DNA of 64,000 nucleotides from Neophaeotheca triangularis. Taxonomy: Eukaryota. The translations under genes were made by a program, and so were the position numbers. Every line of letters begins with the position of its first letter. Within the stretch, counting starts at the first letter, position 1. Shown here piece after piece: positions 31,375 to 58,000 of this stretch. Below the pieces are notes generated by a model. The model was not told the DNA's origin and made no database searches. It was given only the letters and a program-made list of their open reading frames with translations. The DNA lies in assembly GCA_054600435.1 (NCBI GenBank), contig BAAIJX010000003.1, positions 496,001-560,000 of the forward strand, given 5' to 3'.

Positions 31375-32816
31375 TCACAACTTCTCCTTCAACACAGCCT
31401 TCATCCTCTTCTCGACCGCCTCCAAGTACTGCGAGGTAGTGACGTAGTCATCCTTCTTACCACAGCTAATAGCCAAGTCCTTGGTCATGATACCTTGCAC
31501 GTCCACAACGTGCACGCAAGCCTCCTCCAAGCTCTCTGCGAATTTGGTCAACTCCGGGGTACCGTCCAGCTCGCCGCGCTTGGCGAGACCTCGTGTCCAG
31601 GCGAAGATGGAAGCGATGGGGTTGGTGGAAGTAGGGTTGCCCTTTTGATGTTCGCGGTAGTGGCGTGTGACGGTGCCGTGGGCGGCTTCGGCCTCGTAGG
31701 TCTTGCCGTCGGGGGTGATCAGGACGGATGTCATGAGGCCGAGACTGCCGAAGCCTTGGGCGACAATGTCGGATTGAACGTCGCCGTCGTAGTCTATGCA
31801 GGTGATTGGTTAGCCAATGTGCTGAAAGTCTGGAAGATGTGCTTAGCCTTACTCTTCATGGCAATCACAAAGCCGCCCTCGCTCTTGATCATCTGCGCAA
31901 CCATGTCGTCAATCAGACGGTGCTCGTACCAGATGCCAGCCGCCTCAAACTCTTTCCTGTACTGAGCCTCGTAGATCTCCTGGAAGATGTCCTTGAACCT
32001 GCCGTCGTACTTCTTTAGAATCGTGTTCTTGGTGCTCATATACAGAGGGAACTTCATGCTGAGCGCGTGCTTGAAGCTTGCGTGCGCGAAACCGGAGATG
32101 CTCTCTTGGGTGTTGTATTGAGTCTGCGCGACACCTCCTTCGGTCTTCTCGTCAAATTCAAAGACCTTGATTTTCTGAGGCTCGCCTCCCTTGGGGGTGT
32201 AGACCATCTCGAGGGTGCCAGGCCCAGGGACAACCATGTCCTTTGCCCTATATTGGTCGCCGAATGCATGTCTGCCGATAACGATTGGCTTCTTCCACCC
32301 AGGCACTAGTCGCGGGACCTTGGGAATAACGATGGGCTCTCTGAAGACGGTTCCGCCGAGGTGGTTCCTGATGGTGCCGTTGGGCGACAGCCACATCTTC
32401 TTGAGCTTGAACTCTTCCACTCGCTGCTCGTCGGGCGTGATGGTCGCGCACTTGACACCGACGCTGTACTTCTTGATCGCCTCAGCGGCATCGAGAGTGA
32501 CTTGGTCATTGGTCTCATCTCGATATGGCAGGCCGAGGTCGTAGTATTTGAGCTCGATGTCGAGGTATGGGTGGATGAACTTGTCCTTGATGTCCTTCCA
32601 AATGATCCTGGTCATCTCATCGCCATCGAGCTCGACGACGGGATTCTTGACCTTGATTTTGGGGATTTGAGAGGCCATGGTTCGTCGCTGGACAAGCTTT
32701 GCTGCTGCAGGTCTGCTCAAGCTCGAAGCTGCCAGAGAGGAGGCGGAGAACGATGAAGATGCGGCGGGGGTGGAGGTGGCGAGGGAGCGGGTAGTAATAG
32801 AGCGGAGGGACTGCAT
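31375..32816 (-). CDS. IDP1: NADP-dependent isocitrate dehydrogenase, 460 aa, 2 exons, with mitochondrial presequence and a second in-frame ATG at 32678
   Basis: [37 protein letters not shown], spliced [10 protein letters not shown] (intron 31794-31852), [10 protein letters not shown]. Confidence 0.98.
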
Positions 32817-34011
32817 TATTATGCGTGAGACCAAGGGAAGGTAAGGTTGTCGCGTTCGTGCCGTCTTGCCCTTTTTCAATTCTTGTTCCACGGCAGAGAA
32901 ACAGCGGCGGCACAGCAGGCTTGCTCTCAGCTTGTCTCGGCTTGGGGAGAGGGGGGATTCGACTTCCGAGATCGGCTGTCGCTTGCGGTCAGCTCAGCTT
33001 ATTACCCGAGGACGGACACGGGGAAGAGAGAGCTTCAGGCACGTGAAAAGCAATTGGGCGGGGCATCTCAGGGCGAATCTTCGGCTCTTCGCAACGGCAG
33101 CCCACCCTCCCGGCGCTGACAGCTGGGGAAATCTCAACTTCACTTCATCCAGTGGCTACTCCCCGAGCACGTCTCGTGTTTGAAGCTCTAGCCTATTGAT
33201 AGTCAATGGGACTACTACTATCCGCCCGGATGGATGTGAGAGCAGGCCTCAGTTACCAATGTCGTATGCCTACTCGACGCGCCCCTGACCAAGACCTCCC
33301 AACGTCCAGTTACGTTTCCCAATGGCTAGTTATTGAAAGGAACAATGGCGAGGCACGTGTTGAGATCGGTGTTTACGAACTTGCAAGCGTGGTTAATTGT
33401 GGACTGGACAAGTTCTGTGATGAGATATGAGCTCAGAGGGTGAGCTCGAATTACGTGGCGTACGGAGCACAAGAATGAAAGAATAAGATGATCTTTTGGT
33501 CGAAGAGATCAGGTGGTATAACATGAAGAGTTGATCTCAAGGTTAATCTGGCGATCGCGACATGAGTTTCGGACGACAATTCCCAGTCCCACCCCGCGAA
33601 GCATTACAAGCCGCATCGGGAATGAAAGTCGATACATGCGATATAGCATCGATAAGCGGGCTCTTTGGGACGCTGCGAAGACTCAAAAAAGAGCGGGTGC
33701 ATGGTAGGCAATCTGCCATCTCAAGAACATCGCCGCAGCCGGAGATGACCTCAAACTATGAACCGATTGCAAGCCGGACCCGATTAATTACCTTAGAGCT
33801 GTTATAACGAGAAGCATATCGCGAAAGTGAAGAACGAACCAAGCGAACGGCAAACCAGAAGTATATGGGCCTGGCCGAGCAACGCAAACTCCAGGCTGTA
33901 CTCTTCACTTCACTTCACTCCACCTCACCTCACTCCCCCCCCCCTCCCCCAGTGAACCCAGCACACCCAAAGAATGAAACAATAAATACCGATAAACGGT
34001 CCACGTGACTA

Positions 34012-34250
34012 CTCAGATCCGTCGGCGTACTGGCAGTACCTCGAGGCCCTAGGGGCAACTAATTCGGGAAGCAGGTTCAGGACTGACTAGTGCGCGGAGG
34101 GTGACCGAAGATCCGTGGCGTGTGAAGTACCCGCGGGGTTCATCCCCCCAAACGATCAAATCCCATGCGTTTCGAGCGGCTCGCCCGCCTTCGCCATAAT
34201 GGGTGTGCCACTCGCCCGCGGGGTGGTTCGGACTGAGACTTTTTTTTTTT
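34012..34250 (+). ncRNA. Candidate RNA polymerase III-type structured ncRNA (about 230 nt), family unidentified
   Basis: Closing stem CTCAG (34012-16) with CTGAG (34233-37); two long arms with G-U pairs; A-box-like CGGCGTACTGG (34023-33); B-box-like GGTTCAGGAC (34074-83); AATAAATA about 30 nt upstream; T11 tract 34240-34250; no credible ORF. Confidence 0.55.
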
Positions 34251-35715
34251 CCAATTTGTTGGGGCGTGTTATGGTGTGCTTATTTTATCAAGTTTATTTG
34301 ATTGTTTTTTGGTGTTAGTTGTATAGAAGGGTACAAAGGGGCTTTAGAGGCGCTTAGGCGTTGCTTCACTTTTGCCTGAGGCGCGGGGGTTGGTATGACG
34401 CACTTTGTTTCCTCCGCCGCTCCAACGCCGTCCGCGCCGATAGCACGTACTACTACTCGTACGAACATCTCGTGCCGCAAGCATGCTAATGAGTTCACAG
34501 AGTGTACTAAGCTTTCTACGATGGTGAGGGCCGGCTGCAGGACTTCGCCAGCTCCGCAAATGGCCGACAGTTCGAACAGTACCATCAGCTACAGTGAGTT
34601 AAGACTCTTCGCTATTTACTTGTAGACAACCAGCCCAGGTCCTTGTATACAATCAAGGATCGCAGCGTACTACGCCGCACTTTCGCCTTGATCCGAAGGC
34701 CTACCTAGTGCCAGGTCTTGACTTTCAATGGTAGAGCTGCGACAATTCTACCCGATTCCGATGACAACACTAAGATGCGGCGGTTTGCACACCACGCCTT
34801 CTCCCGGTTCTGGGCAAGAGACTGACATAGGCTTGATTGGCGCATCCCTCCAAGTCTTCTCTCATGCTACTCCTCGACTCACTAAATTCAAGCGGGACCC
34901 GAGCAAATCGAGACAACTTGATGCTTTACCATTGGCAGCTTCAATCAACCGCCGAGCTACTAGCAGAGCCTAACATGCCGAAAGTCACACGCTTCGTCGT
35001 TCGTTTGCTTGCAACTTCTGGTGCCATAGGTTAAGAACTCTCAGTGGCTGCGGATCGCTCTCCTTATTCCCGACAGGACCGCCAGAAGGTCAAGCGCTGG
35101 ACTGGCAGCTCCCTTTCCAAGAGCGACGCAGTGCACCGTACAAATCATCAGCCTTACTCGGCCTCCCTTTCCAACGTTTGAAGACTGGAAGCTTAGGCGT
35201 CGCAAACTGCGCAATTGATTTGCCCACGACTACCCGAAGCGGCGAGGCCTTTCTATGAACGGACGAGAAACAGTAGATTTATTGAAGTGTTTCAAACTCC
35301 ACCTCCACCAAAGAACAAAAGTAAACGAACCACGATAGGAGAGAAGGCACTGCGGAAGTCGGAGTGTTGAAAGCTCTAAAAAGCTGCCCTGTAGATTGAA
35401 CCTTGCCACCTTTTGCCTCCTAGCCCCTGAATGCTCGGCGTCACACATTCTCTACTTCGTTTGCGTGCGAGTCTTGTTACTCCGACTACATCGAAAAGAT
35501 CTCGCGAAGAGAAAAAGAGGGGTGATCGTACTGCGCGGCCCTGCGTGATCCGCTCTGCCGCACGAGCTAGCGCATTCCATACTGGAGTGATGAAGGATCA
35601 ATGATAACCTGCTAGTCGCCCGTCTTTTAGCGCTTGGTCTTCCGCCAGGAATCATACGCTAGCCATCTGCTTGCTAATAATGTGGCTTGTCTAGCATGTA
35701 GCTAATGCAGCCCGC

Positions 35716-36381
35716 CTACACCTGAGGTTGAGTTCCTTTCTCGTTCAGAAGCTCTCGACCTTTTTCCAACAATTCCATGACCATTTGCCAATGACCAGTG
35801 TCGCTTGCGCACCGCCCGATCACCATGCCCAAGTTTTTGCACTGTTCGGCCCGTCCAAACTTGCTGTCCGCCGCCAACATGCAGTCCGACCAGCCATTGG
35901 TTACCATCTCGCCGTGACATCCTTTTGAATGTGAGTGCGCCGCGGCGGCTGATACTCTGAACTCAGCATAGCAGGCTGCCATACCGTCAAAATCGGCACC
36001 CCGGCCATCAGCTCTTCTCGTGGAATGATAATTATAGCACCTGTATGCTGAGAGTGGCGCGCAACGACCTTCTGCGTCTTTCTTCACGAGGCGAGGGTCG
36101 CACTTAGGCGTGCCTAAAGAGCGAGCAAGTTCCGGATGACTTGTGATTATTTCCTCGTCGAAAGACCTTGCCAGACAGAATGTATGTTCGAACGGTATTG
36201 CAACGCCAATCCGCTGGCTCAATTTGTCGTTCATAATCGATGCGAGATAGCTAATCACGAGATTTAGGACAAGCCCAGCTGGGTCGGCTAGTAGTTGTGT
36301 CCTGATCATCAACCATTTGAGGTGGACTTCGAGGAGTAAGAGCGTGGCGGTCCATGCCCAGAAGGCCAGGAACTTGCGCAT
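35716..36381 (-). CDS. Hypothetical 221-aa protein with hydrophobic N-terminus and Cys-rich C-terminal region
   Basis: ATG-initiated single ORF with N-terminal hydrophobic segments and 9 Cys; divergent from UTP15. Confidence 0.55.
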   Translation of the reverse strand: MRKFLAFWAWTATLLLLEVHLKWLMIRTQLLADPAGLVLNLVISYLASIMNDKLSQRIGVAIPFEHTFCLARSFDEEIITSHPELARSLGTPKCDPRLVKKDAEGRCAPLSAYRCYNYHSTRRADGRGADFDGMAACYAEFRVSAAAAHSHSKGCHGEMVTNGWSDCMLAADSKFGRAEQCKNLGMVIGRCASDTGHWQMVMELLEKGRELLNEKGTQPQV

Positions 36382-36743
36382 TGTTGGCGAGCAGAGCCTG
36401 TCATCGGATCTATATCGGCGTTGCGGTCAAAAAGGTGGTTCGGAAAATGAATGGCTCCAGAAGGCGATTGAATGCCGAATACAGTATTCGAGGTAGATGG
36501 ACAAGGATGAGGTGAGTGAAGTGAAGTTGGTCAGCCAAGTCAGCGTAGGGCAGGGCAGCCGGCAAGTCCAGGCGAAGCTCGGCTTCTCCCGTCCTTCAAA
36601 AGCACCGCACTCCGACACGACAGCTCGGGAAAAATTGCAGCCTCCAACCGCGCGACTGAGCTTGATATCAAACTTCGTAGAAGAATGTTCAGGCAGTAAA
36701 CTTCCAACTTCTCCCCCTTACACTCATCTTCTTCCTCTTGATC

Positions 36744-38402
36744 ATGGCTGCTGAAGTCCAGCCTCTACCGCTTGTGCGGGCACCAGCCGGGCCTGCACCC
36801 CTTACAGCTGATCAAGCTTACTGGAAAACTTTCAAGAACCAGCTGCTGTTACCATCGCCGCACAACAGTGGAATCACCTCGATTACGATCCCGTCTTTGA
36901 ACCCGACAGGCGCGCAATCCGACACATTTGCCGTGACAACTGGCGGACGAGTGCAGATTTACTCTGCTAAGACGCGCAAAGTTGTCAAGACGATCAGCAG
37001 ATTCGGCGTGGACGACACAGCTCGCTCAGGGGTGCTGAGAAGAGACGGCAGAATTTTGCTGGCGGGTGGTGATTCTGGGGTTGTACAAGCGTTCGACACA
37101 GGCTCAAGAGCTATCTTGCGGCAATGGCGAGGGGATTTTGGGCACAAACAGTCTGTCAATCTTGTCCGCTGGAAACCGGATGAACTCACCGAGTTTATGA
37201 GCTGCAGCGACGACCGTACCGTACGACTATGGGATCTCACAGAGGACGAAGCGAAGTGGACAGGCGTTGGTCATACAGACTACGTGCGCTCGGGCTGCTT
37301 CCTACCCAACCAGTCGCACATGGTGGTCAGTGGTAGTTATGACCAAACTGTGCGCGTATGGGATACTCGACAAGACGGAAGACCAGCCCTTACATTCAAG
37401 CATGCCGCTGCTATCGAAGACGTCCTCCCTCTCTCGCCAACTACTCTAGCAGCCGCTTCAGGAAACCAAGTCTCCATCCTCGACCTTGTAGCCGGCCGAC
37501 CCTCCAACGTCCTCCACTCTCACCAAAAGACCGTCACCGCTCTCGCGACCGCCCAAAACAGCTCGCGTCTCCTGACAGCAGCCCTAGACGGCCACGTAAA
37601 GATCCACAACACAACGAGCTGGCAAGTAGTCAGCGGTATCAAATACACCGCTCCTATTCTATCGCTCGCCGTAATCCCCAACCGCGCATCCTCCCCAAAC
37701 GAGCAAGAAGACCGCCACCTGGCAGTTGGGCTCCAATCGGGTCTGCTCGCCCTTCGGACTCGCCTCGCCGGCGCCGAAAAAGCCCGCAACCAAGAGCGTG
37801 AAAAGCGTATGACAGCCTTGCTGGCGGGCGAGGCCGACGAGTACGAGCGTAAGCAACGTAAGAAGGACATGCGCCAGGGCATTCGCGCAAGAGACAGAGG
37901 CAAAGATTTCAAAGGCGAGAGCGCGGATATCGTCATTACGGGCAATGAGCGGAGTAAGCAGAAGAAATTGAAGCCCTGGCAGAAACTCCTGCGTCAGGGC
38001 AAGTACTCGAGTGCGCTGGATATGGTGCTCGTACCCGAAGGCGGGCCAGGAAAATATAACAACGAAGATGTGCTCACTCTCTTCACTGCGCTTCGGCACA
38101 GAAGCGCCCTGAAAGTTGCCCTCGACGGCAGGGGCGCCGAGGGATTAGTCCCCATTCTGCGTTGGATTCTGAGATACGTGGCGGACCCGCGCTGCTTGCT
38201 GCTGGTCGTGGACGTACTGCTTCTGGCTCTGGACTTGTACGCGCGGGCCCTTGGGGATTGGGGGTTGGGTGGGAGGTCCGGGGAAGAGAGCGAGTGTGTG
38301 GACTTGATCACTAGGATTGGGAGGAGGGTGAGGCATAGCACCGAGGTTGCCCAGGATGCGAAGGTGGTTTTGGGTGCCGTAGATTTGATTGCGGCTGGTT
38401 GA
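36744..38402 (+). CDS. UTP15: U3 snoRNA-associated WD40 protein Utp15 (SSU processome)
   Basis: MAAEVQPL...YWKTFKNQ; WD40 repeats (SCSDDRTVRLWD, GHTDYVRS, SGSYDQTVRVWD, HQKTVT, LDGHVK); C-terminal ALRHRSAL..ALDGR. Confidence 0.95.
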   Translation: MAAEVQPLPLVRAPAGPAPLTADQAYWKTFKNQLLLPSPHNSGITSITIPSLNPTGAQSDTFAVTTGGRVQIYSAKTRKVVKTISRFGVDDTARSGVLRRDGRILLAGGDSGVVQAFDTGSRAILRQWRGDFGHKQSVNLVRWKPDELTEFMSCSDDRTVRLWDLTEDEAKWTGVGHTDYVRSGCFLPNQSHMVVSGSYDQTVRVWDTRQDGRPALTFKHAAAIEDVLPLSPTTLAAASGNQVSILDLVAGRPSNVLHSHQKTVTALATAQNSSRLLTAALDGHVKIHNTTSWQVVSGIKYTAPILSLAVIPNRASSPNEQEDRHLAVGLQSGLLALRTRLAGAEKARNQEREKRMTALLAGEADEYERKQRKKDMRQGIRARDRGKDFKGESADIVITGNERSKQKKLKPWQKLLRQGKYSSALDMVLVPEGGPGKYNNEDVLTLFTALRHRSALKVALDGRGAEGLVPILRWILRYVADPRCLLLVVDVLLLALDLYARALGDWGLGGRSGEESECVDLITRIGRRVRHSTEVAQDAKVVLGAVDLIAAG

Positions 38403-55040: not shown

Positions 55041-58000
55041 ATGCCACCCTCATGGCCTAACCGCCTGCTATCGAGCACAAACTCCTCCTCCGCCTCCTCC
55101 AACACACCCAGCCGTCCTTCCGCAAACGATCGCTCCTCTTCCGCCCGCGACAAACATCTTCCCCGTCCACCTGTTGCCAATACCGGCGCCCAGAGCTATA
55201 ACTCATCGACCCGCGAAGGCCTCGAGCGTATCCCCCCAACCCTGAACCCTAATCGAGTACATTCCGACCAGAGACATCCGTCTCCCCTCCGTCCGCCCGC
55301 CTCAGGCTCGAGACAGTCGGGTCAGCACTCACACGGGCGCTCTGTCAGCCATCCGCTACCTCGGCTTTTCGGGCGAAAGAAGAGCACGGGGAATTTGAAG
55401 GGGTATGCGGATACCGATGTCCCTCTGGATGATAGTTTGGTGCCTGTGCTTGACGACCCCGATGATGGACAAGGGCAGGGCCCGACGCCTACAAGGGTCG
55501 TGAGTGGAAAGAAAAATGCAGGTGCCAGTAAAGGGGAGGATGATGGGGACAGAGCGCAAAGACAGTGCATGTGTTGCGACAACAAGGTCAGGGTGCCCAG
55601 GGAGCTGGAGAGGTATAGATGTATGGCCTGTTTGACGATTAATGATTTGCGGACTGTCGGGAAGGAGAAGGTGGGAGAGCAGGGTGCAACGGATGCAAAT
55701 AGGCTTGGGCCTGGTGGAATGGGCGCTTCAAGACAGGTCTCTGTTGAGAGAACGAGAGCAATCATCGACCGATGCCTGATGGCTTATTTGGAAGCGAGGT
55801 GTAGGAGGCAAGGTGATCATCATGCGGCATCAAAGAGCACTGGGACGCCCATCAAGATTGCTCGGACACCGGACGAAGAGCTCAGCGAGGGCATGGGTGG
55901 TTTGGGTCTCCAGCCCAGTGCGCGAACTGGCCAGAGTGGTGCCCAGAACGATGCGCATGTAGCTTCATCGCCGCCAGATACTTACAATGAGCTTACGCTC
56001 ACCGCCAGTGCAACCATCCGAGACTTCTCGGATTTTGACATGTTTGCTTTTCAACGTACAGAAACACCCCCACCTGGAACAAGTGCTGAGACGCCCGGAC
56101 TTTTGTCGACTGGACTGGCGCGTAAGCCGTTGCCTCCTAAACCCGGCAGGAAACCCCCACCTCCGCCTGTTGATGCTTCTCTACGACCTACTTCGCAGAG
56201 AATCCCTGCAGAGGGAGAAAAATCCCCTCATTACCAGCAACACAGTCCTCGAATGACGCCCGAGGAGATCGAACGGCGGAAACGCTACGACCGGGTAAAG
56301 ACTATTTTCCGGCCCCTAGAAGACTACATGATCGATACCTACGGCGACTATCAATGCTTAAATGGCTCTTTTAGCACTGTCAGACCACTGCTCCCGGGTA
56401 GAGCGAAGAGCGAGAGCAACATTCGTACCCCTCCGCCTGAGCCCATTATTACATCATCTACAAAGGAAGAAACTCCAATGGATGGATTATCCGAATTAGA
56501 CGCAAAAACATTACTGCTCGGAGACATTGGCGAAAATGGTTCGTGGTGGGCCGGTCGGCTCGATAAGAACACTGCTGCTGCCGACAAATCCACACGCCGC
56601 AAGAAGGTCGGAGAGGGCTCGAGCAGGCCTGTGTCCTCGAAAACGCCGAACATTAACTGGACCGAGCTTTCGAGGTGGTACGATCTCGTCCAGTCGGCCG
56701 GCGAGGATTGGCGAGAGAAAGCTACGCTGGTCACTTGTGAAGCTCCTGGGTCATCTAGGGTGCATCTCGAGGGCCCCACCAATGAACAAGAGATTGAGGA
56801 GGATCTCGCAGAAGCACGTTCACATGCCTCTCGCGCGCTGCTCAAGATTTCAGAGAATGTGCTGAAGCGTCCTACGAGGCCGCTGAGAGAGGCCGCAGAT
56901 CTACGATTCTCACTCATCATTCTTTCAAATCCGGCATTGTATCCGTCCTGGCATCAATCAGAGCGTACGTCTGCCAGAACCCCGAATGGCCTTCAGCGAG
57001 CGTCCTCCGACAAGCGTGATGGTGCTGACGGGGCTTCTGCTTCCCCTACGAAGTCGCCTCGCCGCGAAAGCAGTGCGCATCATGGGATTCTGAAAAGGAT
57101 ATTCGGACTGCTTGCAAACTCGCCGGACTCCTGTCATCGATATCTCATCGGTTGGTTTTCGCGCTTTGACGAACACCATTTTGTGCGGACCGTCGACCTA
57201 GTGGCGAGTTTCGTCACCAACCGGCTTGCCCGGCGCAGCTCCCGGCCTCACAGCAAGAGTACCGCCGCAGATGGTGGTCTCATACCCGATCTATCCGGGT
57301 CTGCCATGAACACTTCAGCTCAGCTACACGCGGCTATGGGCCTGAGCGGCTCAATCAAAAACCCTCGCGGCGCCGAAGGTGATCAGCAGACCGACTACGC
57401 TGACGACTGGCAGATCAAGGTAGCTGCCAAGTTAATGTCTTTGCTGTTTGCGGCCAATAATAGCTGGCAGGGCGCGAAGAAAGATGGCAGCGAGCTGCCC
57501 GGTCCCGTCGGTAGTGGTATTGTTGGCCCTGCTGGCGTTCCCTCGCTAGACAAGACTCGGATTCGCGGTCAGTTGCTGCATACTTCTGCTTTCTACAATA
57601 CGCTGCTAGACTACCACGACCTCATCGCGGACTTCAAGTTGTGGGAGTCGAAGCGAGAGAAGTTTGCCTTTTGCCAGTACCCGCTATTCCTATCTATGGG
57701 CTCGAAGATCAAGATTCTGGAGTTCGACGCTAGAAGGCAGATGGAAATCAAAGCCCGCGAGGCGTACTTTGATCAAGTCATTCGTCAGCGAGCCATTGAT
57801 GGGTACTTTCACCTGCGCATACGTCGGGACTGCTTGGTCGACGACAGTCTACGGCAGATTAGCCAAGCCAGCGGTGCCGGGCAGGAAGAGCTCAAGAAAG
57901 GCTTACGTGTACACTTCACAGGCGAAGAGGGCGTCGATGCAGGCGGTCCTCGAAAAGAATGGTTCCTCATGCTTGTCCGCGACATCTTTGACCCCAATCA

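Follow-up and report, generated by a model that had tools for sequence, protein, structure and literature searches.

The window, as we call the whole 64-kb stretch of DNA that was analysed, contains an interval of 3.7 kb between two divergent genes, that for NADP-isocitrate dehydrogenase (31794-32993, - strand) and that for UTP15 (36744-38402, + strand), and between these two flanking genes, approximately 2.5 kb upstream of UTP15, lies the element considered here. The GC content rises to 62% in the block 34012-34237, compared with 51% in both flanks and 54% in the window as a whole. None of the ORFs within 33000-36700 carries a Pfam family, and a preliminary description of this stretch was fair in speaking of a gene-free interval, if this is taken to mean 3.7 kb without a Pfam-bearing ORF. 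That the element is a coding remnant was considered and rejected, as none of the six ORFs around it has a Pfam family above the cut-off. The sole sizeable ORF of the interval, on the - strand at 35716-36426 (236 aa from stop to stop, 221 aa from the first ATG), has no Pfam family and no tblastn match in seven related contigs, and it may be an orphan gene or no gene.

The nearest relative found for the UTP15 gene product, at 90% identity, is encoded on a public contig of 59 kb (P0002), and the best of the relatives that carry names, at 65-69% identity, belong to Meristemomyces, Teratosphaeria, Acrodontium, Baudoinia, Elasticomyces and Friedmanniomyces. The host is, judged by this one protein, a Dothideomycete of the Teratosphaeriaceae/Mycosphaerellales kind and no relative of Neurospora.

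Layout and predicted fold of the element

The strings quoted in the preliminary description are all present in the sequence, namely AATAAATA and the T11 run (Table 1), CTCAG (34012-16), CTGAG (34233-37), GCGTACTGG (34025-33), CTAGTGCGC (34087-95), CCGAA (34105-09), TTCGG (34227-31) and GATC at 34016, 34110 and 34154. [quoted passage not shown] Both signals are uncommon in the window, where TATA-like hexamers number 48 per 128,000 strand-bases and runs of at least ten T or A number five, T11 being one of them.

Table 1. Features of the element, in window coordinates.
Feature	Positions	Strand	Remarks
TATA-like box AATAAATA	33981..33988	+	lies 24-31 nt before the terminal stem's first base; candidate TFIIIB/TBP site
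Predicted transcription start zone	34011..34015	+	placed by TATA spacing alone
Terminal stem, 5' strand (CUCAG, bulged A, UCCG)	34012..34021	+	pairs with 34229-34237 at probability 0.89-1.0
Arm 1, a long and irregular hairpin, its tip branched or open	34025..34095	+	base of 9+4+3 bp
Arm 2a, hairpin	34096..34148	+	firm core CCGUGG/CCGCGG (34113-18/34131-36), weak outer helix
Arm 2b, long hairpin	34154..34228	+	core 34173-34214; helix probabilities 0.69-1.0
Terminal stem, 3' strand (CGGA, CUGAG)	34229..34237	+	ensemble pairing
T11 run, candidate Pol III terminator	34240..34250	+	begins two bases past the terminal stem

The fold was predicted from the Boltzmann ensemble of 34011-34244. The closing stem CTCAG/CTGAG that had been proposed earlier reappears in this ensemble and is longer than claimed, with CUCAG and UCCG pairing to CGGA and CUGAG over 9 bp. 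The pairing proposed for arm 1 is likewise recovered, the 13 basal base pairs (9+4) having probabilities of about 1.0 and the range being 0.85-1.0 when the next 3 bp are included. The second arm of the preliminary description did not fare as well, since its pairs CCGAA/TTCGG and ATCCGTGG/CCGCGGGGT have an ensemble probability of about 0 and their place is taken by two hairpins, arms 2a and 2b. As this half of the element folds into two hairpins, the best model of the predicted structure is a four-way junction formed by the terminal stem and three arms, rather than a molecule with two arms. Within arm 2a the core reaches a probability of 0.99 and the outer helices 0.29-0.64. Two exact direct repeats were seen, CCCGCGGGGT at 34130-34139 and 34215-34224, with a palindromic core, and CTCGCCCGC at 34180-34188 and 34211-34219, and because each of them is present twice the pairing of the 3' half is ambiguous, with mutually exclusive options.

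The stability of the fold was compared with that of 200 dinucleotide shuffles. The whole 241-nt fold on the + strand (-93.5 kcal/mol) has a z-score of -0.68, 45 of the 200 shuffles being as stable, and the - strand is less stable (-79.9 kcal/mol, z +0.69). Arm 1 alone stands out with a z-score of -2.16, a value equalled by only 4 of the 200 shuffles, and arm 2 alone (z +0.30) is no more stable than its shuffles. The comparison with shuffled sequences thus speaks for arm 1, and it speaks for neither the whole molecule nor arm 2.

Arm 1, as the one significantly stable part, brings to mind the Neurospora precursors of microRNA-like small RNAs (milRNAs), which are reported to be Pol III-dependent (PMC3547838). 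The element would resemble these as a fungal Pol III-type unit with a stable hairpin, and it might then be such a precursor, with arm 1 as the hairpin that is diced. We consider this very improbable, as the helix of arm 1, with 9+4+3 bp interrupted by bulges, or approximately 16 bp in all, is short for a Dicer substrate, and the element, with its three arms, is far bigger than a hairpin.

Comparison of the layout with the rest of the window

The duplex formed by the ends of the element (-16.2 kcal/mol) belongs to the top 1.7% of pairs with the same spacing in the window, or to the top 3.5% if these are GC-matched. The window contains 13 pairs of a TATA-like box and a T run lying 80-450 nt apart, and among these the element has the best end pairing (-16.6 kcal/mol) and the second longest T run. 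Three of the other 12 come close to it, with end pairing of -15.3 to -16.0 kcal/mol, so the layout alone occurs by chance. If the 5' partner is left free to lie anywhere between 60 and 400 nt upstream, duplexes of -19 to -25 kcal/mol are available to the 20 nt that precede most of the 87 runs of at least five T. How readily the pattern arises is shown by a mirror layout on the - strand at 33685-33990, where the same AT-rich box is followed by a T6 run 298 nt off, with end pairing of -15.9 kcal/mol. The window's remaining long runs of T or A are found in contexts like those of introns or 3' UTRs, and long T runs are therefore not necessarily Pol III terminators here.

The preliminary description had placed the element among type-2 Pol III genes because of A-box-like and B-box-like elements. 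This argument finds no support, as the likeness to A and B boxes is at chance level (the window has 7 occurrences of the B-box-like pattern, with 9.8 expected) and ARAGORN finds no tRNA-like fold. The broader Pol III layout held in part: the box does lie approximately 30 nt before the terminal stem and T11 does follow two bases after it, but such layouts are not unusual in the controls from the window. We regard the Pol III layout as suggestive, not diagnostic.

The main rival of the reading as a Pol III gene is that the locus contains no discrete RNA gene, and that a patch of high GC, a hexamer rich in A and T and a stretch of poly(dT) have come to stand in Pol III-like order by chance in a 3.7-kb intergenic or promoter region, with helices such as any sequence of 62% GC would form. 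This is a real possibility, if short of an even chance. The unremarkable stability of the whole fold and of arm 2 agrees with it, as do the ease with which a free partner yields end pairing, the fact that 4 of the 13 pairs of TATA-like box and T run reach -15 kcal/mol or better, the intron or UTR contexts of the other long T or A runs, motif matches at chance level and the lack of any family match. A chance arrangement fits less well with the coincidence, on the same 230 nt, of a stable arm 1 and low variation between strains (P 0.022; see below), or with a TATA-like hexamer that is rare here and correctly spaced, a stem that abuts T11 and a step in GC content at both borders.

Comparison with known RNA families

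The covariance models of Rfam 15 (4227 families) were searched at the gathering score and at E<=10. The whole window gave no match at the gathering score, and the element alone (34008-34246) gave none at E<=10, so that the earlier designation of the element as unassigned was upheld. At E<=10 a single junk match to a lncRNA appeared in 33850-34400, and a single junk match to a CRISPR repeat in 32900-36800. Models of RNase P RNA (RF00009) and RNase MRP RNA (RF00030) did not match the window at the gathering score, nor 33850-34400, 32900-36800 or 34008-34246 at E<=10; the SRP RNA models (RF00017, RF01502 and related) matched neither the window at the gathering score nor 33850-34400 and 34008-34246 at E<=10; and 7SK RNA (RF00100) matched neither the window at the gathering score nor 34008-34246 at E<=10. 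ARAGORN finds no tRNA in the window at its default threshold (100%) and none in the element at thresholds of 95% or 85%, and at 75% and 65% its calls on the element are meaningless. For a 21-mer taken from the element, a prokaryote genome collection yields no exact match.

Pol III genes that depend on a TATA box are known from yeasts, as exemplified by U6/SNR6 and by the -30 TATA of Schizosaccharomyces pombe Pol III genes. The element resembles them in its AT-rich box approximately 30 nt before the predicted start, its T run in the place of the terminator, a predicted product some hundreds of nucleotides long and the pairing of the RNA ends. It differs from them in that it matches neither U6 nor another family of Rfam and has no convincing A or B box, and its promoter elements are putative. 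7SK RNA and its partners are known from metazoans. A resemblance to 7SK had been suggested on account of the three GATC motifs, which the element would share with 7SK along with a U tail and, as a candidate, transcription by Pol III. The idea finds no backing in an Rfam match, and three GATC where approximately 0.8 are expected is a weak signal.

In RNase P and MRP RNA the 5' strand of P4 carries CR-I, with the consensus GNAANNUCNGNG, which pairs with CR-V, with the consensus ACNNNANNNNGNNUA, near the 3' end. The architecture of the element vaguely recalls that of these RNAs, with a terminal stem and a long helix-loop-helix first arm followed by a CR-I-like 12-mer at 34106-17, which agrees with the consensus at six of the seven fixed positions (one mismatch), and it might be read as a strongly diverged member of an essential family (RNase P or MRP RNA, SRP RNA, U3) that has been missed by the Rfam models. 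We hold this to be most unlikely. Beyond the lack of any Rfam match on the element alone, CR-I-like 12-mers with one mismatch are at chance level (177 in the window, with 209 expected), and the CR-V consensus at no more than one mismatch is absent from 34012-34250, the nearest of the matches listed being at 33790 and 34282. Furthermore, the RNase P, MRP and SRP RNAs of Pezizomycotina are recognisable by ordinary similarity and have other sizes, the transcripts of a powdery mildew being 383, 257 and 238 nt long (table 3 of PMC6611051). At 383 nt, that RNase P RNA is far longer than the element. The size of the element is close to that of SRP (7SL) RNA, a Pol III product of approximately 240 nt in Pezizomycotina to judge from the 238-nt transcript in the same table, and the two also have GC-richness and long irregular helices in common, but the order of domains does not fit SRP RNA and no SRP model matches at E<=10.

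Several other candidates were set aside. Telomerase RNA was rejected, since the surroundings of the element contain no template-like AACCCTAA (the two matches in the window are at 55245 and 60233) and no Rfam telomerase model matches. The likenesses of a piece of arm 1 to SRP helix 8 and of 34022-34032 to the 5' end of U3 were dropped, as no model matches. In the part of the literature covered by our search, no description of such a Pol III-type RNA in filamentous fungi was found, and none of the fungal ncRNA motifs in the sections of PMC5640933 consulted concerns a Pol III-type RNA.

Variation, copy number and the candidate RNA gene

Variation between strains was assessed with another assembly (X2) that bears the same organism label, in which one contig of 4215 nt spans 33500-34798. 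Only one of the 25 substitutions listed falls in 33981-34250, where 5.2 would be expected (binomial P 0.022); for 34012-34239 the probability is 0.051, and a post hoc test of the largest gap is not significant (P 0.19). The sole substitution of the element, at 34023, falls where the model leaves the link from the terminal stem to arm 1 unpaired. Base 34251 is T in X2, a change that extends the T run.

Low variation reaches further upstream, to 33867, with one substitution in 384 nt, which would also suit a piece of a longer Pol II transcript, either a lncRNA or the UTR of an unannotated gene, in which the T run would be no terminator. The length of the region 33000-36700, which holds orphan ORFs only, is consistent with such a transcript as well. 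We nevertheless judge it improbable, given that no + strand coding neighbour runs into the element and that the TATA-like box and the terminal stem exactly bracket the GC-rich block.

Over 32 nt, arm 1 and arm 2a can be aligned in their 5' parts (34015-34046 and 34109-34136), with a score reached by 24 of 500 shuffles; both parts begin with AGATCCGT..GGCGT, and each half of the element closes with a GGTTC..GGACTGA-like string. This likeness in sequence may reflect an internal duplication. The motif GGTTC, which was picked post hoc, occurs three times in the 226 nt of the element and 41 times on the whole + strand, with approximately 0.14 expected in the element. The three GGTTC cores, the alignment between the two halves in their 5' parts and the inverted-repeat ends that the terminal stem provides could also be taken as what remains of a tRNA-derived SINE or MITE. 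We give this reading next to no credence: the element is single-copy, with one copy in the 64 kb; one unbroken X2 contig runs across it and no second X2 contig matches at a likeness of at least 80%, the extra pieces all lying on the low-complexity tract at 33903-33947; it has no tRNA-like fold, and no target-site duplication was seen around it. The SINE that the preliminary description had entertained is thus rejected on copy number, as counted in the window and in X2.

Relatives were sought in seven metagenome loci that were fetched by means of UTP15 (45-85% identity). The element has no match in these contigs by blastn (word size 7) or nhmmer --max, Rfam finds nothing on them, and tblastn and tblastx show that UTP15 alone is common to them and the window. 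Two of the contigs (L004 and L006) carry just 2.4-2.55 kb upstream of UTP15, that is, about the distance at which the element would be found. As synteny is lost in the seven contigs and the flanks are short in these two, the lack of a match says little on conservation. A T11 run in L005 was examined and proved to be unrelated sequence. Four of these related Dothideomycete contigs (L001, L003 with 21.6 kb, L006 and L007) contain no run of at least six T or A, as against 20 in the window.

A handful of modest and independent signals converge on the same 230 nt, namely the position of the TATA-like box, a stem that abuts T11, a stable arm 1, the step in GC content, low variation between strains and the lack of coding potential, and a Pol III RNA gene is consequently the most likely reading. 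Well-studied yeasts have yielded few new Pol III ncRNAs, which makes for a low prior, and we put the probability that the element is a single-copy, lineage-specific gene for a Pol III-type small RNA, which is plausible but unproven, at roughly 0.45. The preliminary description, whose Pol III reading was thus plausible if unproven, was largely right, except for the pairing of arm 2 and the A and B boxes.

If the element is such a gene, it would stand alone and be transcribed by Pol III from the + strand into an RNA of about 230 nt, roughly from 34011 to 34244, and its transcription, along with the polymerase, the ends of the RNA and any role it has, is what we infer from the features described above. 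TFIIIB would be brought in by the TATA-like box upstream, as in the TATA-dependent Pol III genes of yeasts, and transcription would start approximately 25-30 nt downstream of it and stop within T11, leaving an oligo-U tail that could serve as a La-type binding site. The ends of the RNA would pair as the 9-bp stem, from which the three arms (34025-95, 34096-148 and 34154-228) would radiate, and the product might be a stable, protein-binding scaffold RNA restricted to a Teratosphaeriaceae-like lineage of Dothideomycetes. We would tentatively go one step further and propose that it is a hitherto undescribed Pol III RNA whose range is limited to a lineage of rock-inhabiting or black Dothideomycetes, which has no Rfam relative, whose four-way junction perhaps goes back to an internal duplication and which acts as the scaffold of a novel ribonucleoprotein.

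The Pol III transcriptomes of fungi are regarded as almost closed sets, comprising tRNA, 5S, U6, SRP, RNase P and a few extras. Should Dothideomycetes make a further abundant Pol III RNA, it would point to a novel ribonucleoprotein, and it would also offer a compact native pair of Pol III promoter and terminator for the expression of guide RNAs in black fungi, which are poorly tractable. Should the layout have arisen by chance, it would serve as a warning that a TATA-like box, end pairing and a T run alone are not diagnostic in GC-rich fungal intergenic DNA.

Some observations concern the immediate surroundings of the element. In run X4 a single low-depth contig of 156 nt lies on 34094-34249; the RNA type of this run is a guess, and the contig is not counted as evidence of transcription. 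Just upstream of the TATA-like box, at 33880-33950, a low-complexity CACTT/CACCT repeat leads into a C-rich tract. Short, high-depth contigs from runs X2 and X5 stack on 33903-33947, so a motif of the CACTT/CACCT type recurs elsewhere in these genomes, and the length of the tract varies between strains, with 2-3 bases missing at 33935. Directly after the T run, at 34253-34262, where no snRNA model matches, lies AATTTGTTGG, which resembles an Sm-site-like consensus.
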